A stretch of DNA of 63,850 nucleotides, the filler included, from Nanobdellota archaeon (lineage in GTDB: Archaea; Nanobdellota; Nanobdellia; B33-G15): NCBI GenBank assembly GCA_003660925.1. It is 10 parts of 10 records of this genome, joined end to end, with 100 filler letters (N's around TTAATTAATTAA, not from the genome) between each part and the next. Parts side by side here need not be neighbours in the genome. Positions count along the whole stretch, not along the records: positions 7,649 to 14,795 come from QMVD01000035.1; 9 more parts are not named here. The stretch is one strand, 5' to 3'. Positions within the stretch are counted from its first letter, which is position 1. Every line of letters begins with the position of its first letter. The notes beneath the pieces were generated by a model. It did no database searches, had not been told where the DNA came from, and saw only the letters and a program-made list of their open reading frames with translations. Both the position numbers and the translations under genes were made by a program. Below, piece after piece: positions 4,365 through 14,895 of this stretch.

Positions 4365-5339
4365 ATGAGGACGGGAGTAGTGGACCTCTTACTCCATCAC
4401 GGAAGGGCTCCTCCTTGGTTGCTCGAACGCATGAGGAAGTTGGGAGGAGCCATATGTGAGGCGATCATAGATGAATATGGGGAGAAGGAATTGTTGAGGA
4501 GGTTGTCAAAGCCCTTGTGGTTCCAAGCGCTCTCCTATGTCTTGGGATACGATTGGAATTCGAGCGGGACCACCACCGTAACCACTGCTGTCTTGAAGAG
4601 CGTGTTGAGGGATGAGATAAGGGTGGCTGGGGGGAAGGGGAGGACCGCTTTAAGAACTCCTCAAGAATTGAGGGAGATTGCGAGGGAGTTTGGGTTGGAC
4701 GAAGAGGGGCTCGTGAGGACATCGAAGCTCGTGGCTAAGGTAGATAACTCTTTGATTCAAGATGGTTACCAACTCTATCACCACGCCTTCTTCATCTCCA
4801 GGGATGGGGATTGGACGGTGATCCAACAGGGGATGAAAGGAAATCTTGCTAGGAGATATCACTGGTTCAACGAGGCGAAGATAGGGGACGAGCATGGGAT
4901 CATGGGGTTGAAGGAGGAGAAGGTCCTCAACCTCGCTTCAGAAAGGAGCGAGGAAGTCAGGAGAGGCATCTTGGACTTCGTGAAGGAGAGGCACGCGTTC
5001 ATAGATGGGGTCAACTGGGAGGCCTTGAAAGAGGCTTATGAGCTCCAGCCCAAGAACTTCGAGGAGTTCCTGTTGATAAGGGGGATAGGCCCAAAGACCT
5101 TGAGGAGCCTCGCCCTGGTCTCCAAAGTTATTTATGGGAGTGAACTGGACTGGAGGGACCCCATAAAGTACACCTTCGCCTTCGGAGGAAAGGATGGGGT
5201 TCCCTACCCTGTCAACAAGAGATTGATGGATGAGGTCATCCTAACCCTGAGGGAGGCGCTAGACTTAGCGAAGGCGGGAAAAAACGAGAAGAAAGAAGCT
5301 ATAAAACGTTTAAGCGTATTTAAGTGCGAGTACGAATAG
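4365..5339 (+). CDS. DUF763 family protein
   Basis: LHHGRAPPWL, DWNSSGTTT, QDGYQLYHH, FAFGGKDGVPYPV; start moved to ATG 4365, 24 nt after a TATA box. Confidence 0.9.
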   Translation: MRTGVVDLLLHHGRAPPWLLERMRKLGGAICEAIIDEYGEKELLRRLSKPLWFQALSYVLGYDWNSSGTTTVTTAVLKSVLRDEIRVAGGKGRTALRTPQELREIAREFGLDEEGLVRTSKLVAKVDNSLIQDGYQLYHHAFFISRDGDWTVIQQGMKGNLARRYHWFNEAKIGDEHGIMGLKEEKVLNLASERSEEVRRGILDFVKERHAFIDGVNWEALKEAYELQPKNFEEFLLIRGIGPKTLRSLALVSKVIYGSELDWRDPIKYTFAFGGKDGVPYPVNKRLMDEVILTLREALDLAKAGKNEKKEAIKRLSVFKCEYE

Positions 5340-5498
5340 GATCACTGAGATCACTATGGGCGCAATGCTCCCGTAGAAGAGCCACTCATTAGTCCCATAG
5401 AACTCATATATCTTCCAGAACCCTAGCGCTAAGAACTCCACTACTGTTATCAGTGCGAACGCGATGAAGGAGTACAACAGGATATCTGAACGATCCAT
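5310..5498 (-). CDS. Small two-TM membrane protein
   Basis: Two hydrophobic stretches; follows the 5506-5940 ORF on the same strand. Confidence 0.6.
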   Translation of the reverse strand: MDRSDILLYSFIAFALITVVEFLALGFWKIYEFYGTNEWLFYGSIAPIVISVILFVLALKYA

Positions 5499-5505
5499 GA
5501 ATTTC

Positions 5506-5940
5506 CTAAAGCCTGCTCATTAAAAAATCTAACGATGAAGGGGAGAGATAGGCATACACCTTTTCCTCATCCTCATCCACGATGTAGAGGATGTGATGTT
5601 CCGCTTTCAGTAAGTGGGAGAACAACCTGATGGCCCTCGTCTTGCTTTTGAAGAGAGGGACGGCGAAGCTGAAGATGCCTTGAACGTATTTCTCTAAGTT
5701 CCTCCTCTTCTTGCAGAAGAGGTTAGAACCGTTCCTGGAGTAATTCCTCTGGACTTCAATTATCTCCTGCACTTCTAACTCTAGTCCGTTCATCGTCCAC
5801 TTCTCTCGAAGCAGGAGGTCTATCTCCCCGCCGCACACCCTGACATGGGTATCCACCCCCTCTATCTCTCTTAGATAGGATAATGGGTCCCTCCTCGGGA
5901 GATAAGTGGAGAGAAATCGAACGAGCTCGTCGTGTCGCAT
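5506..5940 (-). CDS. Hypothetical protein with degenerate PD-(D/E)XK-like motifs
   Basis: GEIDLL...IIEVQ...NLEKY; AT-rich promoter shared with the divergent GTPase. Confidence 0.6.
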   Translation of the reverse strand: MRHDELVRFLSTYLPRRDPLSYLREIEGVDTHVRVCGGEIDLLLREKWTMNGLELEVQEIIEVQRNYSRNGSNLFCKKRRNLEKYVQGIFSFAVPLFKSKTRAIRLFSHLLKAEHHILYIVDEDEEKVYAYLSPSSLDFLMSRL

Positions 5941-5987
5941 GAGTAAAGAGGCCCAACTTATTTATTAAGGATGTTATAGCGTAGTAT

Positions 5988-6716
5988 ATGAACAAGAGAG
6001 TCCTCAGGATGATAAGGAAGAGCCATATAGTCCTAGAGGTTATAGACATAAGGTGTCCCCTGGAGACGAGATGTAGGGCATTGGAAGATTACTTGTTGAG
6101 GAAGGGGAAACCCTTCATAAGGGTGTTCAACAAGGCGGATCTCGTCCCGAAGGAGTTCGCGGAGTTCGTGATCTCCAGGATGAAAGGTGTGTACGTGAGT
6201 TCTAAGACGAGGGGAGGGTTAAGAAAGCTCAAGGAGAAGATAAGGGAATATATGGGAGGGAGGGAAAAAGCGGTGGTGTGCGTGGTGGGCTTCCCTAACA
6301 CCGGTAAGTCGAGTTTGATAAACGCGTTGAAGGGGAAGAAAGTGGCGAAGGTGGCTCCGACCCCTGGCTACACCAAGGGAGAACAGTTCATAAGGATGAG
6401 CGAAGATATCCTGCTCATAGACACGCCTGGGGTCTTGAAACAGAAGTTTCAATGGGACGAGAAGGCCAAGAACCCCCTTACCCCAGCCTTGAAGATCCTA
6501 AAGAAGGCGGACAAGGATTACATAAAGAGATTCTACAAGGTGGAGGCAGACGAGCCCTTAGAGATCCTGGAGGAGATGAGGAAGAAAAGGGGGTGGAAGG
6601 AGATAGAGAGGGCAGCGAGGAAGGTGCTCCAGGACTGGAACGCGGGGAGGCTGAAGGTGTACTGGTTTGGGAAAATTAATAAATCAAATTTCACAACTAA
6701 TACTGAACAAAAATGA
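5988..6716 (+). CDS. Circularly permuted ribosome biogenesis GTPase (RbgA/YlqF family)
   Basis: NKAD precedes GFPNTGKSS, then PGYT and DTPG. Confidence 0.92.
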   Translation: MNKRVLRMIRKSHIVLEVIDIRCPLETRCRALEDYLLRKGKPFIRVFNKADLVPKEFAEFVISRMKGVYVSSKTRGGLRKLKEKIREYMGGREKAVVCVVGFPNTGKSSLINALKGKKVAKVAPTPGYTKGEQFIRMSEDILLIDTPGVLKQKFQWDEKAKNPLTPALKILKKADKDYIKRFYKVEADEPLEILEEMRKKRGWKEIERAARKVLQDWNAGRLKVYWFGKINKSNFTTNTEQK

Positions 6717-7548
6717 AGAAGCTCCTCTTCCTTGTATTGGACGGCCTCGGGGATAGGCCTGTCTTCGAAGGGAAGACTCCCTTGGAAGCCGCGAACACCC
6801 CTAATATGGATGAACTGGCCAAGGAAGGGATGACCGGAAGGATGTACATAGTAGGGAAGAACATAGCTCCAGAATCTGATGTTGCCCTCTTCTGCCTATT
6901 CGGGTACGATCCTTTCAAGTATTACACTGGGAGGGGGCCCATAGAAGCCTATGGAGTAGGGATAGAAACGAGGTTCGGTGAGCTCGCTCTGAGGGGGAAC
7001 TTGGCCAGCGTCGATAAGAATTGGAACATGCTCAACGTCAGGGTCAAATTAAATGATGAGGAGGGGAAAGAATTCGTGAGGGCCTTGGAGGACATGAAGA
7101 TAGACGGTGCGAAGTTCGTGATAAAGCACACCAGAGGTTATAGGTTTGTGGTGAAGTTCAGGGCCAAGCGCAACCTATCAGCCAAGATAACCAACGTCCA
7201 CCCAGGTTATATGAGGCTGGGAATAGATATACCCATTGCGGCCCCTTTGAGGAACTGGAAGGTGAAGGAAGCCGTCCCTTTGGCCAATTCCAAAGGGGCG
7301 GTGTTGGCAGCTAGGATAGTGAACGAGTTCGTGAGGAAAAGCTATGAGGTCCTGAGCAGGCATAAACTCAACAAGAAGAGGAAGGTCAAGGCGAACATCG
7401 CCCTGCTGAGGGACGCTGGCAACAGGCTCCCCGATCTCCCTAAATTGAGCGAGAAGTACGGGAGGATCTGGGCAGCCATAACTGATAGACCTGTTGAGGT
7501 GGGCTTCTTCAGGTTGATAGGGATGGACATAATCGAACCGCCGAGGGA
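6713..7548 (+). CDS. apgM: Cofactor-independent phosphoglycerate mutase, archaeal type (3' truncated)
   Basis: LDGLGDRP, TPLEAANTPNMD, SDVA, YTGRGPIEA. Confidence 0.88.
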
Positions 7549-7648
7549 NNNNNNNNNNNNNNNNNNNNNNNNNNNNNNNNNNNNNNNNNNNNTTAATTAA
7601 TTAANNNNNNNNNNNNNNNNNNNNNNNNNNNNNNNNNNNNNNNNNNNN
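7549..7648. other. Artificial contig linker
   Basis: N44-TTAATTAATTAA-N44 (stops in six frames). Confidence 0.99.
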
Positions 7649-8724
7649 CCCTTCACCCTCAATTTCGTGAACAGACTAGGTTCTGGTTTCTCTTCGGGAA
7701 CTAAGAGCTTGTGCTCGTTCAGGAGGGCTATCAACTTCTTCCTAGAGCTTTCCAGGGGGTCCAACTCCGTCCTGCCCATAACGTACCCCACCGCTGATTC
7801 CAGACACTTCATGTAGAGCTTGAACGCCTGATTGTATTTCTTGACCCTTTCCCTCACCTCCCTCGACCTGGAGTTCTCGCCATCTGGAAGCACGTGCCAA
7901 GTAACGGCACAGATTGGACATTCCATTGCCTTCGAGGCTTCTAAGAAGAGGTTGGGGTAGATACAACCAACTATCCCGAGTAAACTGGCTCCCCTATCCT
8001 CAGACATTATCCTCTTCACGGGGATGAGAGTGACGTTCCCCTTCGCTTCTTGTTGCTTCAACCATCCCTTATATTCTCTTTTCAACTTGGCGCCTTCTAG
8101 GTCCACTATGCCTATCCCATGCAAATTCTGTCCGAGCTTCACTCCGTATTTGTCCAGGCTTTGCAGGATGGTGTAGAAGGCCCTCCCAGATATGAGGGTG
8201 TCCAGGATGACAGGTTTCTTCAAGGGCCTCAACTGCCTGTAGTAGTTTGCTATTTCCTTCCTGCCTTCCACCTCTTCGAGGAGGAGCTCGAACGCCTTGA
8301 AGCACTTGTCCTCCTTCCTCTCCTTCCCATCCTTAAAGAGGAGGGAGATCAAATAACTCCCACTGTCCCTTATCTCATCCACGACTTGATCTAAACTCTT
8401 CCCGTACCTCCTCAATTTCTCCTTTGGGATGTAAACATCAGCGGTCAGGGGAACAGGGACGACTGGGAACTCCCCTTCTTCGGAGCTCCCCTCAACTTTC
8501 ATGAAGCTCGGCACGCTCAATATTTCTTCTAACTCGCTTCCCTTAAGGGCATCGAAGACCCCCCTGAAGATGGGATATGCTCCTCTGCTCGGAATTATCA
8601 AGCTATCGACGTCTTTGTTCTCATATAACTCCGTTAATCTATGTGCGGTGAGCACACAGCCCTGGGCGAGGCTCAGAAAATTCTCTACCGAAAACTCTTT
8701 ATCATAAAACAAAACTTTGGCCAT
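7649..8724 (-). CDS. Hypothetical protein with PRTase-like motifs (3' truncated)
   Basis: Long ORF; IIPSRGAYP and VILDTLISGRAF resemble type I phosphoribosyltransferase loops. Confidence 0.6.
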
Positions 8725-8850
8725 GATTTATCGTGCAGAAATTTATTTTTTAACTTTTCGGTAGTCATTTTTCCCCTGTTGGATCGCAATTTCAGACTGT
8801 AACTTGAGCAATTAATTTTATAAGTAAAAGGAAGATAGTCTACTCTGAAG

Positions 8851-9063
8851 ATGAAGAGGTCGACTTTCGCGATGTGTCTCGTCCCTCTTCTGTTAGGAGG
8901 AACGAGGGCATACGTGGACCCCGGGACGGGCATAGTCCTTGGGAGTTCCCTGTGGACCCTAATGGTTGCCTTCTTCTCAACTTTAGCAGCATTCCTGGCC
9001 AAACACTTCTGGGACCCCATAAAGAGGGTTGTCAAGAAGACGCTTAAAAAGTTGAAAAGATAA
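8851..9063 (+). CDS. Small membrane protein with AYVDPGTG motif
   Basis: Signal-like N-terminus, YVDPGTG, TM helix, basic tail; heads the sulfate cluster. Confidence 0.75.
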   Translation: MKRSTFAMCLVPLLLGGTRAYVDPGTGIVLGSSLWTLMVAFFSTLAAFLAKHFWDPIKRVVKKTLKKLKR

Positions 9064-9073
9064 AGGTGGTCCC

Positions 9074-10846
9074 ATGCAAGATAGAGTCCTGGTCATAGGT
9101 ATCGATGCGATGGACCCGAGGATCGTTGATAGGTTAGACCTCCCGAACTTGAAAAGTCTTGAGACCTACAGGCGCCTAGAGACGACGATCCCACCAGAGA
9201 CCCCTGTGGCGTGGAGTGCAGCATCAACTGGGTCAAATCCTGGTAGATATGGGATCTTCGACTTTATCAATAGGGACCCAAAGACATATCTCCCGAGACT
9301 AAATCTCGCTGAGGAGAAACATGGATTGGTAGGAATGAAGTTCTCTTGCGCGATGAAAGGTGTGCCTTTCTGGAGGATATTAAATGAGAAGGACATCAAG
9401 ACGACAGTCATAAGGTGGCCCGTGACCTTCCCCGCCGAGAAGGTGAAAGGAAGGATGCTGTCAGGTTTAGGGGTCGTGGACATAAAAGGGATGCTCAACA
9501 GTTACTCTTACTACACCGACGAGGATTTGGGGGAGGATGTGGAGGGGAAGGAAAAAATCATACGGGTCACGATCAAGAACAATTTGATAGAAACCTACAT
9601 CTCAGGACCGTTGATAAGAAAAGGTAGTGAAATAAGGGACGTGAGGGTTCCGATGAAGATTATGTTAAAAGAAGGAGGGGCGGTCATCAACGTCCAAAAT
9701 CAGGAGTTTTTCTTGAAACCGAAGCAGTGGAGCCAAATGATAAGGGTGAAGTTCAAACTCAGGCCCTTCTCTCACGTGTACGGGATAATGAAGTTCTACC
9801 TCATATCCATTAGGCCGACGTTCAAGATGTACATGACTTCAGTACAGATAGATCCTGAAAATCAAGTGGTGGACATCACTTATCCAAGAGAGTATGGGAA
9901 GGAGCTCGTCAGAGAAATTGGGCTGTTTTACACCCTGGGAATGCCTGAGGACACCAAGGCCGTCACCGAGAACAAGTTGAGCGAGAGGGTATTCCTCGAA
10001 CAAGTCAAACAAATCGAAGAGGAAAGGAGGAAGATGTTCTTTTACGAGTTCGAAAGGTTTGAGGATGGGCTCTACGCTTTCGTCTTCGACGCGGGGGATA
10101 GATTAGAGCACATATTTTGGAGAAAAATGGACTTGGATAGCAGGAACTTCGAGGTCCCGAAGGAGATAGAGGAATATTACGTGGAGAAGGACAGGTTCAT
10201 CGGAGAGGTGCTCTCGAGGTTGGATGATGACGTGAAACTGATCATATTCTCCGATCATGGATTCAGCAATTTTGAGAGGCAGGTCAATGTGAACTCGTGG
10301 CTCGTCGAGGAAGGTTACATGAGTTTGAAAGGTGATACCTCGGGCACCTTATTCGAATTCGTGGATTGGGAGAACACGCAAGCGTACTCTTTGGGGTTCA
10401 CAAGTTTATACGTAAACTTGAAAGGGAGAGAGGGGAAAGGCATTGTCGATGAAGCGGAGAAATGTGACTTAATAGAGGAGATATCTAAAAAGTTAAGGAA
10501 GCTCAAAGATGGGAGTAGACGCGTCTTCACGAACGTCTACAAGGGTGAGGAAATTTATGAGGGGAGGTATTCCCATCTCGCTCCTGACTTGGTGTTGGGT
10601 TTCTCGCCTGGATACAGGATGTCTTGGAGAAGTGCGGTCGGTGCCTTGGATCCCCAAGTGATCTTCGATAACAAGGGTAAGTGGAGGGGGGATCACTTGG
10701 TTGATAGAAGCCATGTGCCAGGGGTCCTATTCGCGAATTTCAAGACTAAGGAGAAAAATCCGAACATAATAGATATCGCTCCCACCGTACTCAAGCTTTT
10801 TGATGTGGAAATTCCGAGATATATGGACGGGAAGGCCCTGATTTAA
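9074..10846 (+). CDS. Alkaline phosphatase superfamily, type I phosphodiesterase/nucleotide pyrophosphatase
   Basis: IGIDAMD, TTIPPETPVAWS, TGSNPG, SDHGF, GDH, DIAPTVL. Confidence 0.88.
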   Translation: MQDRVLVIGIDAMDPRIVDRLDLPNLKSLETYRRLETTIPPETPVAWSAASTGSNPGRYGIFDFINRDPKTYLPRLNLAEEKHGLVGMKFSCAMKGVPFWRILNEKDIKTTVIRWPVTFPAEKVKGRMLSGLGVVDIKGMLNSYSYYTDEDLGEDVEGKEKIIRVTIKNNLIETYISGPLIRKGSEIRDVRVPMKIMLKEGGAVINVQNQEFFLKPKQWSQMIRVKFKLRPFSHVYGIMKFYLISIRPTFKMYMTSVQIDPENQVVDITYPREYGKELVREIGLFYTLGMPEDTKAVTENKLSERVFLEQVKQIEEERRKMFFYEFERFEDGLYAFVFDAGDRLEHIFWRKMDLDSRNFEVPKEIEEYYVEKDRFIGEVLSRLDDDVKLIIFSDHGFSNFERQVNVNSWLVEEGYMSLKGDTSGTLFEFVDWENTQAYSLGFTSLYVNLKGREGKGIVDEAEKCDLIEEISKKLRKLKDGSRRVFTNVYKGEEIYEGRYSHLAPDLVLGFSPGYRMSWRSAVGALDPQVIFDNKGKWRGDHLVDRSHVPGVLFANFKTKEKNPNIIDIAPTVLKLFDVEIPRYMDGKALI

Positions 10847-10876
10847 GCTGAGGAAAGGTTTAAATATGTTAATGTT

Positions 10877-11110
10877 GTGACATTAAAAATTATGACAAAG
10901 AAAAAAGCCATGAAGAGAAAGCATACGACGATATCCATACCCAAACCCTTGTACGAAAGGATTAAGAAGAGGTTAAGAAATACGGGCTTTTCCTCGGTCT
11001 CCTCTTACGTCACTTATGTCCTAAGAGAGATAGAAGCCAACATCAGCAGGAAGGGAAAGGAAAACAGGGAAAGGATCGAGGAGAAGCTCAGGGCTTTGGG
11101 CTATCTCTGA
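10877..11110 (+). CDS. CopG/ribbon-helix-helix protein (start may be a downstream ATG)
   Basis: TTISIPKPLYERIK...TGFSSVSSYVTYVLRE; ends EKLRALGYL. Confidence 0.85.
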   Translation: MTLKIMTKKKAMKRKHTTISIPKPLYERIKKRLRNTGFSSVSSYVTYVLREIEANISRKGKENRERIEEKLRALGYL

Positions 11111-11127
11111 AATGGGGGGATGAAAAA

Positions 11128-11928
11128 ATGAACGACCTTAAGGAGCTGGAAAAGAAAAGTATATACATCATAAGAGAAGCATATGCGCAGTTCAAGAATG
11201 TCGTCGTTCTTTGGAGCACAGGGAAGGACTCAACTACTGCCCTCGCGCTTTGCAGGAAGGCTTTTGATGGGAAGATCCCCTTCCCTGTAGTTCACATAGA
11301 CACGAGTTATAAGTTTCCGGAGATGTACGAATTCAGGGACAGGATCGCGAAGGAATGGGGTTTTGACTTGCACGTCGTGAGAAATGAAGAGGCTTTAAGG
11401 AAGGGGATGGGGCCTCACAAGGGAAAGTTAGTTTGTTGTAATGCACTCAAGACTGAAGCTTTGAAACAATACATACTGAGGAACAAAGTCGACGCCGTCA
11501 TCGTGGCGATAAGGCGGGACGAGCATGGGATAAGGGCAAAAGAGAGGGTGTTTTCCCCAAGGGATGAAAATTTCAGGTGGGCATACAAGGAGCAGGAGCC
11601 GGAGATGTGGGACATCTACCTGTCCCAGTCAAAGGACAAGACACACGTAAGGGTCCACCCCATGCTGGAGTGGACGGAAATAGATGTGTGGAGGTACGTG
11701 AGGAAGGAGAACCTTCCCGTGAATCCCCTGTACTTCGCGAGGAACGGGAAGAGATACAGGAGCTTAGGTTGCCAGCCGTGCACCGTTCCCATCGAGTCCA
11801 ACGCGAAGACTGTCGATGAGATAATTGAGGAGCTGAAGAAGACTGACATACCCGAGAGGAGCGGGAGGGCACAAGATAAGGAAAGGGCATACATGATGCA
11901 GAAATTGAGGAGCTTAGGATACATGTGA
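11128..11928 (+). CDS. cysD: Sulfate adenylyltransferase subunit 2
   Basis: SIYIIREA, STGKDS PP-loop, HIDT.YKF.EM, RRDE...RAKERVFS.R, RVHP, RSLGC.PCT, ER.GRAQD. Confidence 0.92.
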   Translation: MNDLKELEKKSIYIIREAYAQFKNVVVLWSTGKDSTTALALCRKAFDGKIPFPVVHIDTSYKFPEMYEFRDRIAKEWGFDLHVVRNEEALRKGMGPHKGKLVCCNALKTEALKQYILRNKVDAVIVAIRRDEHGIRAKERVFSPRDENFRWAYKEQEPEMWDIYLSQSKDKTHVRVHPMLEWTEIDVWRYVRKENLPVNPLYFARNGKRYRSLGCQPCTVPIESNAKTVDEIIEELKKTDIPERSGRAQDKERAYMMQKLRSLGYM

Positions 11929-11934
11929 GGGTAA

Positions 11935-13137
11935 ATGAAGGAGAAGATGAACGTAGTGGTGATAGGACATATCGACCACGGGAAATCTACTTTGTTGGGA
12001 AGACTTCTCTACGATTCGGGAACCATCAAGAAAAGGGTGTTAGAAGAGATAAGGAAAACTGTGGAGGAAAGTTTCGGGAAGTTCGAATATGCCCACATAT
12101 TAGACACCCTCCAAGAAGAAAGGGAGGGCCACATGACCATAGACATAATGCACACGTGGTTCAGCACGGATAAGAGAGAGTACACCTTCATCGATTGCCC
12201 GGGACATCACGAGTTCGTCAGGAACATGCTCACAGGGGCTTCCAAGGCGGAGGGAGCGATACTAGTCGTTTCCGTGGTAGAGGGTGTGGAAGATCAGACG
12301 AGGGAACACGCGCTCCTGGCTAAATTCGTCGGGATAGGTCAGTTTTTGATCGCGGTGAATAAGATGGACGCTGTCAAGTGGAAAAGAGAGGAGTATGAAA
12401 GGATTAAGAAAGAAGTCACTGAAATGTTGGAGGAGATAGGCGTCAAAAAATTCGTTTTCGTTCCCATATCAGCCATCCAAGGGGACAACATATTCAAGAA
12501 GAGTAGGCACATGGACTGGCAAGGGAAGACCCTCGTCGAGGTCATGGACGAGTTCTTCGAAGTGCCGAAAAAGAAGGGAAATGAACCTAACCTAGGCGTC
12601 GTTCAATATTCTTTTGATGATAAGATAGTTGGGAGAGTAGAGTCCGGCTCTTTTAAGAGAGGAGATGAACTGTTGTTCGAGCCGTCCGGGCTGAGGGGGG
12701 TAGTGGAAGAGATGAGTGTCTGTGGGGAACCCTGTGAGGAAGCTTCTTCAGGAGATGTGGTCGAGCTTAGGGTGTCCGGCATGAAGGGCAAGGTTTCCAG
12801 GGGGGAAGTTTTTGCTCATGCCTACCTCCCTAAGAAGAAGGAGGAGATCATCGGGGAAATCTTTACTTTCACGGAACTCTTCCCTGGGAAGGGTTACGTG
12901 CTTCACCGTGGCACCGCTCAAGTGAAGTGCAGGATCTCTGAGATCCTCGAGAAGATGGACCCAAGGAAGCTCTCGAAGACTAAGGGAGGTGTGGTGGAAA
13001 AGTCCATGCTCGCGAGAGTGAGGATCTCAATGGAAGAACCCATCGTCATCGAAGATTTCACGAAGGTCCCGTCCCTTGGAAGATTCGTCATAACCGGCCC
13101 TGAGGGAATCGTCTGTGCTGGCAAGTACGTCGGCTAG
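11935..13137 (+). CDS. cysN: Sulfate adenylyltransferase GTPase subunit 1 (CysN-like)
   Basis: [44 protein letters not shown]; directly after cysD. Confidence 0.82.
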
Positions 13138-13178
13138 TTTTTGTAAAAATTTATTAAAATTGTCTCAATATTGAATCA

Positions 13179-14795
13179 GTGTTCGAAATGAGAGCGGTGG
13201 AGCACCTAAAATTAGCGACGTTCACGGGTTTTCTAGTGGGTTTGTTCCTCGGAACAGTGGACTTTTTGGCGAGGATCATCGTCTGGAGCTTCGAATGGTT
13301 TGAACTCTACTTGAGCCTGTTCACATCAATCTTGATCGTGATGCCTCTCTTCACCACCCTGGGCCTTCTTATGGAGCTCGTCAGGAGAGCTGTGAAATTT
13401 AAGTTTGACCGTAAGAGAGCGCGCCTGTTCTACTTTTCGAGCTCGATAGCCTTTCTCTTGTGCTTCTATGGCTTGTCCATAGTGAACAGTTTCATCTTGC
13501 ACTTCAAGACCTTCAGAGATCCCTTGGCCCTTAAGTTGAGCTCACTTGTCTTCGTGTTTTCAGGAGCGGTTTTCCTCTCCCTCTTGCTCAAAGGAGATGA
13601 ATTAGCCTCTAAGGCCTTCTCCCTGCTCTCTTATCTCAAGAGGAAAAAGATACTTGAGAACTACGTCTTCTTCGTATTCGCCTTCATCATCATCTCCTTC
13701 TTCATGGATATCTTCCTCTTGAATTACATCCCTACTTTGAAATCAAGTGAGGAAGTGAGAAACTACCCGAATGTTATCTTGATAACCTTGGACACGTTGA
13801 GGGCCGACCATCTTTCCCTCTATGGTTACCCCTTGAACACGACACCAAATCTCGATAGGATAGCTGAAGATGCGGTCGTCTTCGAGGACGCCATAGCAAC
13901 GTCCTCATGGACGCTGCCCTCACATGCATCCATCTTCACGGGAAGGTATCCTTATCACCACGGAGCTACAGCGAGACATCAACTGTTGCGTCATGAGGAG
14001 AAGCTCCTAGCGGAAATATTGAGGGAGAAGGGATACGTGACCGCGGGATTCGTGGGAGGGCCCTTCTGCAAGGCGAAGTATGGAATCGCGCAGGGTTTCA
14101 TGTTCTACGATGATAGGCTCGACTTCTTCGAGTACTGGCACACATTTGACAAACTGTACATAGGAAGGATCTTTCACGTGGCCTTCCCTGACATCGACAA
14201 GTTCATCTTCAGGTCGGATGGGGAAAGGTCTTCAGAGGAGATAAATAGAAGGGTGTTCAAATGGCTCGAGAAGAACAAAGATCAGACCTTTTTCATGTTC
14301 ATAAACTACTTCGACACCCACATGCCTTACAACCTCGGTAAGGAATTTAAGGAAAGGTTCACGAACGATACGAGGAGCTATAAAGATGTCGTGAAGATCT
14401 TCGCTTTGAAGAGAAACGAAGAGGTTTCGGAAGAAGATGTTGATTTCATAGCTAGCCTTTATGACACTGAGATCTTCCATTTGGATCACCACCTCGAGGA
14501 ATTATTTGATGAGCTCGATGAACTTGGCATAAAGAATGACACGATCATTATCATAACCTCGGATCACGGCGAGGAATTTCATGATCATGGAGGTTTCGGA
14601 CATGGGTGGACCCTGTATCAAGAGGTGGTTCACGTTCCCCTCATCATTTACTATCCAAAAGAGTTCTCTCCTAAGAGGATTGAGGAGAGGGTAAGCCTCA
14701 CCGACCTCTTCCCCACCATACTGGACGTCCTTGGGATGGATACTCCTGAAAACATAGATGGTGTCAGCCTCCTACCGCTGATAAAGGGCGACGGA
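13179..14795 (+). CDS. Membrane-anchored sulfatase-like hydrolase/transferase (3' truncated)
   Basis: About 5 N-terminal TM helices, then PNVILITLDTLRADH, WTLPSHASIFTG, DTHMPY, SDHGE. Confidence 0.88.
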
Positions 14796-14895
14796 NNNNN
14801 NNNNNNNNNNNNNNNNNNNNNNNNNNNNNNNNNNNNNNNTTAATTAATTAANNNNNNNNNNNNNNNNNNNNNNNNNNNNNNNNNNNNNNNNNNNN
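14796..14895. other. Artificial contig linker
   Basis: N44-TTAATTAATTAA-N44. Confidence 0.99.

Follow-up and report, generated by a model that had tools for sequence, protein, structure and literature searches.

A CysD-CysN operon with alkaline phosphatase-fold enzymes and a tyrosine microprotein in a Nanobdellota archaeon: a candidate PAPS-independent sulfation system

In the textbook account, biological sulfation proceeds through 3'-phosphoadenosine 5'-phosphosulfate (PAPS) together with PAPS-dependent sulfotransferases. Here we describe an operon from the draft genome of a Nanobdellota archaeon (assembly GCA_003660925.1; 672 kb in 77 contigs, 88.5% complete) that may sulfate surface glycans by another route. 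The window analysed is a stretch of 63,850 nt, and contig C35 (QMVD01000035.1) within it carries six open reading frames (ORFs): a microprotein with the motif YVDPGTG, an enzyme of the NPP type in the alkaline phosphatase (AlkP) superfamily (NPP590), a ribbon-helix-helix (RHH) protein, the CysD and CysN subunits of an ATP sulfurylase, and a membrane-bound sulfatase-like AlkP enzyme (gene 6). The six ORFs are all on the + strand with successive gaps of 10, 30, 17, 6 and 41 nt (Table 1), in agreement with the six co-oriented genes of an earlier note made from the sequence alone, which had proposed that the cell activates sulfate in order to modify its surface. We conclude that the module is real and conserved and that the sulfation it encodes is probably independent of PAPS, with possible new chemistry at its core.

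Table 1. Features of the operon and its contigs (positions in the window unless a locus is given)
Feature	Position	Strand	Basis or remark
Contig C35	7649-14795		carries the operon; N runs join the window's ten contigs
YVDPGTG microprotein, 70 aa	8851..9063	+	sequence, homologue profile
YVDPGTG codons	8911..8931	+	Tyr21 is the predicted new N-terminus, outer face
NPP590, NPP-type AlkP enzyme, 590 aa	9074..10846	+	PF01663, alignment, structure model
RHH protein, LRALGYL tail	10877..11110, likely start ATG 10892	+	Atlas CopG clusters, homologue PF01402
Short-form CysD, 266 aa, LxxLGY clade	11128..11928	+	NF003587, PF01507, 1ZUN, tree
CysN GTPase subunit, 400 aa, without APS-kinase domain	11935..13137	+	GTP_EFTU, G-motifs
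Gene 6, 5-TM sulfatase-like AlkP enzyme, first 539 of 638 aa	13179..14795	+	PF00884
123-nt overlap with C15 start	14673..14795	+	contig end comparison
Rest of gene 6	L001:1-423 (contig C15), outside the window		contig overlap
GT2 glycosyltransferase, seventh co-oriented gene	L001:459-1133 (contig C15)		35 nt past gene 6
N spacer	14796..14895	.	joins unrelated contigs; artefact of window construction

At its end, C35 shares 123 nt with the start of contig C15 and with no other contig, and one 4,844-nt Logan contig of run X2, which may be the source of this DNA, spans both (window positions 12258-14795 followed by C15 1-1600); gene 6 therefore continues past the end of C35. Since C15 carries an archaeal 16S gene, the contig belongs to the archaeon, and its GC content (47.6%, against 48.9% for the genome) is in keeping with this. 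Contamination, which the earlier note had kept in mind as an origin of the contig, is thus rejected. From its genome size and archaeal rRNA the organism would be of DPANN type, in line with the earlier note. A repeat element was also considered for the 123-nt end matches and rejected, as they are pairwise contig overlaps; many contigs of the assembly share them, so that longer scaffolds can be read, and the window does not follow their genomic order.

On its family and motifs we identify gene 4 as CysD, the catalytic subunit of ATP sulfurylase, which would form adenosine 5'-phosphosulfate (APS). The protein matches PF01507, scores 343 bits against the CysD model NF003587 (cut-off 195) and aligns with 1ZUN at E 1e-65; with TIGR02039 it reaches 268 bits, below the cut-off of 397, and this short form lacks the insert of approximately 31 aa present in classical CysD. 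Motifs STGKDS, RRDE, CC, GCQPC and ERSGR are present, and the protein ends in QKLRSLGYM. In a quick tree of 120 CysD proteins it falls in a 91-row clade with the ending LxxLGY (SH-aLRT 94). APS/PAPS reductase (CysH) has its C-terminal catalytic Cys in the motif ECGLH, which is absent from gene 4 and from all 120 rows, and the CC and CxxC motifs are also found in 23 of the 29 rows outside the clade; assignment of gene 4 as CysH was rejected on these grounds. Sister short CysD forms adjoin CysH/CysK or CysNC/CysC. A second, shorter PAPS_reduct-family protein adjoins sulfatase-like genes elsewhere (L044:6139-6783, L090, L097:2747-3412), and the two such proteins that were aligned end in LKALGY.

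Gene 5 has intact G-motifs, a GTP_EFTU match and no PF01583 match, i.e. no kinase domain of the CysNC/NodQ type. It is 39.8% identical to a separate EF-1alpha on contig C1, which is itself 61-62% identical to two others; the alternative that gene 5 is EF-1alpha was rejected because the genome has this separate copy. The curated models leave the label unsettled (TIGR02034 266 bits, under its cut-off of 336; EF-1alpha models score higher, also under cut-off), and the CysN tree gives no placement, since its motif filter left gene 5 out. The G-motifs, the position beside cysD and the distinctness from EF-1alpha fit CysN, in line with the earlier identification of both subunits. CysDN is described as spending ATP and GTP to form APS (PMC6286981). 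One CysD subclade (SH-aLRT 99) comprises 11 genomes with a single EF-1alpha/CysN match and apparently has CysD without CysN (G011, G051, G111, G150, G173, the single-contig G194, G247, G290, G318, G352 and G376); in G352 cysD lies immediately 5' of the true EF-1alpha gene (L153:644-3096).

NPP590 has a full two-metal site in the alignment (metal ligands D11, D342, H346, D394, H395 and H541) with Thr43 as the nucleophile. Its structure model (pLDDT 93) has ENPP1/NPP as best folds, with TM-scores of 0.40-0.45 by query length, and no PDB sequence was matched. NPP phosphodiesterases carry an Asn three residues past the nucleophile; in NPP590 Ala takes this place, and the next residue, Trp47, is nearly invariant. 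The protein has no transmembrane (TM) segment, no membrane anchor and 0 sequons and is predicted to be soluble, whereas many relatives have a TM segment or a lipoprotein-like or twin-arginine (Tat) N-terminus. Among the TM-anchored relatives, a Met is found where the short forms start in 10 of 11 (L071, L078, L118, L120, L122, L124, L129, L137, L146, L151 and P0003), against an expectation of about 20% per sequence, which hints at isoforms inside and outside the cell, possibly from a dual start. At L102:2303-9767, next to a classical CysD-CysNC, NPP590 occurs as two paralogues, of which the first bears a Tat-like signal and the second follows a YIGP peptide as a fusion and is predicted to be inside; a tailed RHH-like protein and a membrane protein of 259 aa are encoded at the same locus.

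In gene 6 there are five hydrophobic segments, and from the loop charges (8 and 6 Lys/Arg residues in loops 2 and 4) the catalytic domain, containing 4 sequons, is predicted to face outside. D205, T245, H381, D462, H463 and H475 are invariant in 24 aligned sequences. Formylglycine-dependent S1 sulfatases carry the motif C/S-x-P-x-R; gene 6 has no CxPxR but the site TLPSH with Thr245 as the nucleophile, and does not belong with the formylglycine sulfatases by this mark; structure comparison gives S1 sulfatase and phosphonate monoester hydrolase as best folds. LtaS, EptA and YejM have a Thr nucleophile, an N-terminal multi-TM domain and an outward catalytic domain. Gene 6 is like them in nucleophile, anchor and predicted topology and unlike them in its fold, which is nearer to S1 sulfatases, in its scores, which are far below the cut-offs of the family models (22.7 against 970 bits for LtaS, 39.9 against 500 for phosphoethanolamine transferase), and in its donor, which would be a sulfate rather than a phospholipid head group. 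Of the two AlkP enzymes of the earlier note, gene 6 alone is membrane-anchored here; NPP590 has no anchor. The C-terminus of gene 6 (L001:400-423) ends in a run of five Tyr residues, not in the LxxLGY tail of many one-TM relatives. Two more AlkP genes were observed in the genome, one for an exported NPP-type protein (G000:C4:15550-17481) and one for a one-TM sulfatase-like protein (G000:C6:12477-13820) with the same WTLPSH site and 32% identity to gene 6.

The microprotein starts with a predicted signal peptide ending in TRA; the motif YVDPGTG comes next, then a single hydrophobic helix, and the tail is basic. A20, Y21, D23, P24, T26 and G27 are invariant across 17 aligned homologues, and a profile built from 17 copies found 3,597 library representatives at E<=0.001, with the Tyr kept in 148 of the best 150. 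The residue preceding the Tyr is Ala in 94 of 115 strict motif matches; signal cleavage and topology are predictions. No Pfam or NCBIfam family matched the microprotein, a word-index search with it alone found only itself, and its Atlas matches were below 0.9. Six of the best 150 exceed 140 aa: one fusion to a sulfatase-like enzyme (P0063), one to an arylsulfate sulfotransferase (ASST), three fragments resembling that ASST and one spurious match. Altogether, fusions were seen with NPP590 (P0003, L102, G223), the sulfatase-like enzyme (P0063) and ASSTs (P0072, L101). A set of 400 other genomes of the phylum, all at least 90% complete, was searched as relatives; 22 of them carry the microprotein, 20 at E<1e-6, and 15 of these 20 confident carriers are exactly the carriers of NPP590 (ten of the 15 had contributed to the profile). 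In the 99% complete genome G008, GT2 and flippase genes lie around a unit of the order Sat - YIDP peptide - 5-TM enzyme, whose last enzyme is 42% identical to gene 6 over the membrane and catalytic parts, and no CysD, CysC or NPP590 match was found in this genome. On gene content, the unrelated sulfurylase Sat has been swapped in while the peptide and 5-TM partners were kept, and this is the strongest single link of both to APS. The G008 unit is headed by sat together with a pyruvate-kinase-barrel gene that overlaps it (L181:6714-10855). A complex prediction of NPP590, Zn and the mature microprotein gave no answer (score 0.01, mark 0.32) and was used neither way.

The RHH assignment of gene 3 agrees with the earlier note: the protein falls with CopG clusters in the Atlas (0.91-0.92; TM-scores of 0.62-0.71 to CopG-named clusters), and a homologue matches PF01402 (E 1.8e-5), although gene 3 itself has no RHH family match. 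It likely regulates the operon, to judge from its family and position; no convincing operator repeat was found upstream. Apart from gene 3 and CysD, no ORF of the genome ends in an LxxLGY-type motif. Elsewhere the tail is found on the clade CysD, on 69 of 71 RHH-labelled ORFs (partly circular, because the profile includes the tail), on 11 of 34 sulfatase-like ORFs and on three small one-helix proteins, while four of the five ASSTs examined have LxxLPY just after the anchor and the fifth has a YIDPGTG module instead. Three unlabelled ORFs among 8,907 end in LxxLGY, against 0.8 expected by shuffling, which is weak taken alone. The idea that the tail serves only to dock on CysN is weakened because the tail is kept in genomes lacking a CysN match and on proteins predicted to be outside. 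The small anchor-linker-LxxLGY one-helix proteins lie near cysD or ASST genes (L120:8059-8265, L137:10398-10667, L145:8875-9105).

Members of the LxxLGY clade of CysD come from Bathyarchaeia, Woesearchaeota, Thermoplasmata, Methanoperedens, Geomonas, Brocadiaceae and Streptomyces. An AlkP gene was found within 5 kb of the clade cysD at 78 of 91 loci, CysC at 2 and CysH at none; outside the clade an AlkP gene was found at 1 of 29 loci and CysC or CysH at 26 of 29. Many of the tree loci end early at contig ends. The commonest archaeal layout is RHH - CysD - (TauE or DUF2061) - CysN - short AlkP protein, and GT2, GT4, epimerase and flippase genes are often near. Full-length NPP590 (E<1e-150; next best match 4e-54) is present in 15 of the 400 genomes, all 15 being carriers of the clade CysD, with NPP590 on a contig other than that of cysD in five. 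The co-occurrence anticipated by the earlier note is thus borne out both by neighbourhood and by genome content.

In the archaeon's own genome we found no CysC over cut-off and no Sulfotransfer_1, Sulfotransfer_3 (the two sulfotransferase families searched), NIR_SIR, Sat, ASST or Inositol_P/CysQ match, and CysD was the only strong PAPS_reduct match, with no second enzyme of that family. Two weak APS-kinase matches were rejected as other P-loop proteins under the cut-off. An assimilatory reduction route, which would have counted against the earlier proposal, was not seen in terms of Sat, NIR_SIR or a second PAPS-reductase-type enzyme, cysteine synthase not being among the families searched. Absence from an incomplete genome is weak evidence, and the relatives were therefore examined. 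A CysD match is present in 45 of the 400 genomes, 38 with the short type and 7 with the classical type; short forms of G204, G242 and G097 fall outside the LxxLGY clade, leaving 35 clade carriers, five of them off the tree and assigned by tail. With strong CysC defined as E<=1e-40, at an observed gap in the scores, 6 of the 35 clade carriers have one (plus one weak; 6 of 33 without the unpublished G243 and G396), compared to all 7 classical carriers; for Sulfotransfer_3 the numbers are 3 of 35 and 6 of 7. Sulfite reductase is found in none of the 45 CysD genomes, Sat in 2 of 46 and ASST genes in 5 of 46 searched genomes, all five clade carriers.

A need for AlkP-fold proteins in glycan sulfation is already in print for haloarchaea. 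Agl7 (HVO_2046) of Haloferax volcanii is annotated as a sulfatase and its deletion abolishes glycan sulfation (PMC3892788), and Agl30 (VNG1056C) and Agl31 (VNG1057C) of Halobacterium salinarum are AlkP-domain proteins whose genes are required for N-glycan sulfation (PMC11980604); in the text of the latter article no sulfate donor is named and the terms 'PAPS', 'APS' and 'sulfate donor' occur 0 times. As here, these are sulfatase-like proteins of the AlkP superfamily, one membrane-associated and one soluble (PMC11980604, PMC3892788), the likeness being drawn from their descriptions; unlike there, the operon here joins the AlkP genes to CysDN and has an NPP-type enzyme as well as a Tyr microprotein. 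The new part is hence the donor route and not the fold, and the "undescribed system" of the earlier note holds for the former alone. Dedicated, non-assimilatory sulfate activation is known from clusters of the cysDNC/NodPQ type, e.g. cluster VI of Campylobacter jejuni HS:19 (PMC8743553), which likewise place a GTP-coupled ATP sulfurylase beside glycan genes, a layout found in 7 genomes of the phylum; here, in contrast, neither an APS kinase, as a gene or as a domain, nor a PAPS sulfotransferase was found, CysD is short, has the LxxLGY tail and belongs to a separate clade, and the partners are AlkP enzymes. In DltX, also a microprotein, D-Ala is carried from one enzyme to another on an invariant Tyr (PMC12148441). 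In the Dlt system (DltB-DltX-DltD) and the PatA/PatB acyl-Tyr shuttles, as predicted here, an invariant outward Tyr stands between cytoplasmic activation and an outward Ser/Thr-type transferase; our microprotein differs in having no MBOAT/SGNH partner in the operon, no FXYXXF, an N-terminal Tyr after a predicted signal peptide and a cargo that would be sulfate, so it is not a DltX member and is compared to DltX in its way of working. ASSTs (EcAST, Cpz4) are PAPS-independent, use aromatic sulfate donors and accept tyrosine peptides, and most are described as having no known natural role (PMC13426309); they are fused to the peptide elsewhere, and in the present genome, where none was found, the 5-TM AlkP enzyme would fill their place. 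In searches of CC-licensed PubMed Central (PMC) and bioRxiv papers we found no account of a kinase-less module or of the two Tyr motifs.

We propose that the operon encodes PAPS-independent sulfation, in which Thr-type AlkP transferases supplied with APS would sulfate the glycans of the surface, and we put the probability of this reading at roughly 65%. It agrees with the sulfate activation for surface modification via an AlkP relay suggested earlier; the conserved co-occurrence and the missing PAPS genes speak for it, and checks for three of the findings that the earlier note named as refuting (a reduction pathway, within the families searched, a lack of conserved co-occurrence and a foreign contig) turned up none of them. 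In the first step, CysD-CysN would activate sulfate with ATP and GTP, giving APS. No kinase, PAPS sulfotransferase or reductase was found to take up this APS, in the draft genome or in most of the clade, and it would be drawn off by the AlkP partners. Cytoplasmic NPP590 would then probably move the sulfuryl group from APS to Thr43 and load a membrane-bound carrier, for which Tyr21 of the microprotein, as tyrosine-O-sulfate on the outer face, is the best candidate; that Tyr21 is a sulfate shuttle in the manner of DltX is a tentative suggestion by analogy, which we hold to be rather doubtful. By the chemistry of LtaS/EptA and the genetics of Agl30/31, the outer domain of gene 6 would probably take the sulfate on Thr245 and hand it on to a hydroxyl group of some surface glycan, in whose making the adjacent GT2 may have a part. 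Whether glycan or lipid, the acceptor is suggested by the neighbouring genes only. In a wider form, the proposal would be a Dlt-like sulfate pathway in which APS, never PAPS, loads tyrosine-O-sulfate on the Tyr motifs YxDPxTG and LxxL[GP]Y, which serve as aryl-sulfate donors for AlkP and ASST transferases sulfating the surface; this extension is speculative, and we would expect it to fail more readily than to hold.

Several observations weigh against APS-fed AlkP sulfation. NPP590 is predicted inside and Tyr21 outside, which leaves the hand-over across the membrane unexplained, and G008 does without NPP590. NPP-fold enzymes normally attack phosphorus and could just cleave APS into sulfate and AMP. 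Nor is the link exclusive: of the 35 clade genomes six have a strong CysC and three Sulfotransfer_3, and among named loci from other phyla (50 of 65 genomes searched, completeness not given) a CysC match at E<=1e-12 was found in 20 genomes, 12 strong and 8 at 1e-25 to 1e-30, and none in 30. No CysD or Sat was found in 4 of the 20 confident microprotein carriers, two of which have the peptide with an ASST (G351, a single contig, and G328) and two a YLDP peptide with an LtaS-like gene (G380 and G202). The loci were gathered by CysD query, and kinship makes the genomes non-independent; the draft lacks about 11% of the genome, and no TauE-type transporter was found in it. In the control genome of Haloferax volcanii no CysD, Sat or strong CysC match was found although Agl7 sulfates there, so the Agl7 precedent does not point to CysDN; the same genome, from an organism with a sulfated glycan, gave no Sulfotransfer_1/3 match but an ASST match.

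The alternative that stands up best, though we consider it unlikely, is hydrolytic scavenging, in which gene 6 frees sulfate from environmental or host esters, NPP590 removes pyrophosphate or excess APS, and the user of APS has gone unrecognised. That the closest solved folds are hydrolases (ENPP1/NPP for one enzyme, S1 sulfatases and phosphonate monoester hydrolase for the other) and that the TauE importer was not found would suit it, but gene 6 has no CxPxR formylglycine motif, APS is left without a user, and the peptide-ASST fusions and the glycan-locus context go unexplained. Somewhat less probable is a transfer of phospho-groups (phosphoglycerol, phosphocholine or AMP) by the AlkP enzymes and the peptide, with CysDN merely sharing a glycan island. 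The Thr nucleophile and the LtaS-like outward 5-TM topology of gene 6, its weak matches to the EptA/YejM/LtaS models and the YLDP peptide preceding an LtaS-like protein in the two genomes mentioned above would fit; the clade CysD in all 15 NPP590 carriers, the replacement of CysDN by Sat beside the same peptide and enzyme in G008 and the fusions of the peptide to ASSTs would not.

A hidden PAPS route, with an APS kinase and a sulfotransferase lying in the missing part of the genome or too divergent for detection, is improbable: the fragmented draft, the two sulfotransferase families searched and the strong CysC of six clade genomes leave it some room, but 29 of the 35 clade genomes, including the single-contig G024, G184 and G194, have no strong CysC while the same search succeeds in every classical carrier. 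Last, APS-fed AlkP sulfation may hold with a small molecule or carrier-bound metabolite as acceptor, as four Streptomyces clade loci with an acyl carrier protein among NPP, CysD and CysN might indicate, but this is very improbable here, where the last enzyme sits in the membrane with a predicted outward orientation, a GT2 follows and the operon has no carrier protein. The Streptomyces clusters themselves (L063, L065, L068 and L069, ~6000-13700) have the order NPP - acyl carrier protein - NPP - CysD - CysN - NPP near GT2 and are candidates for a natural-product sulfation cluster.

Upstream of the operon, a divergent ORF on the - strand (7649-8724, at least 358 aa) has no Pfam/NCBIfam match and was found at no related locus. 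On C15 (L001) the 16S and 23S genes (4493-6047 and 12767-13056) lie 6.7 kb apart with protein genes between them. An ORF with a WWDxG motif of oligosaccharyltransferase type lies elsewhere in the genome, as do giant ORFs whose sequon density is 4.5-6.1 per 100 aa; the sequon-rich proteins cited in the earlier note are present in the same bin, on other contigs and not adjoining the operon. No RNA was listed among the sequencing runs matching the operon DNA.

In many phyla of archaea and bacteria, the module links sulfatase-fold enzymes to APS synthesis with no APS kinase. Thr43, Tyr21 and Thr245 are residues that can be tested, and the cultured carriers include Geomonas diazotrophica Red69 (L055), with the peptide, TauE, CysD, CysN, NPP590 and a TM sulfatase-like enzyme and no CysC match. 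Should the Dlt-like extension be true, it would account for the unnamed donor of Agl30/31-type enzymes and also give many orphan ASSTs a physiological donor. If the proposed sulfation is true, cysDN in reduced genomes would often have been misread as sulfur assimilation and the accompanying "sulfatases" as degradative enzymes, and both would serve the surface decoration of symbiotic archaea.

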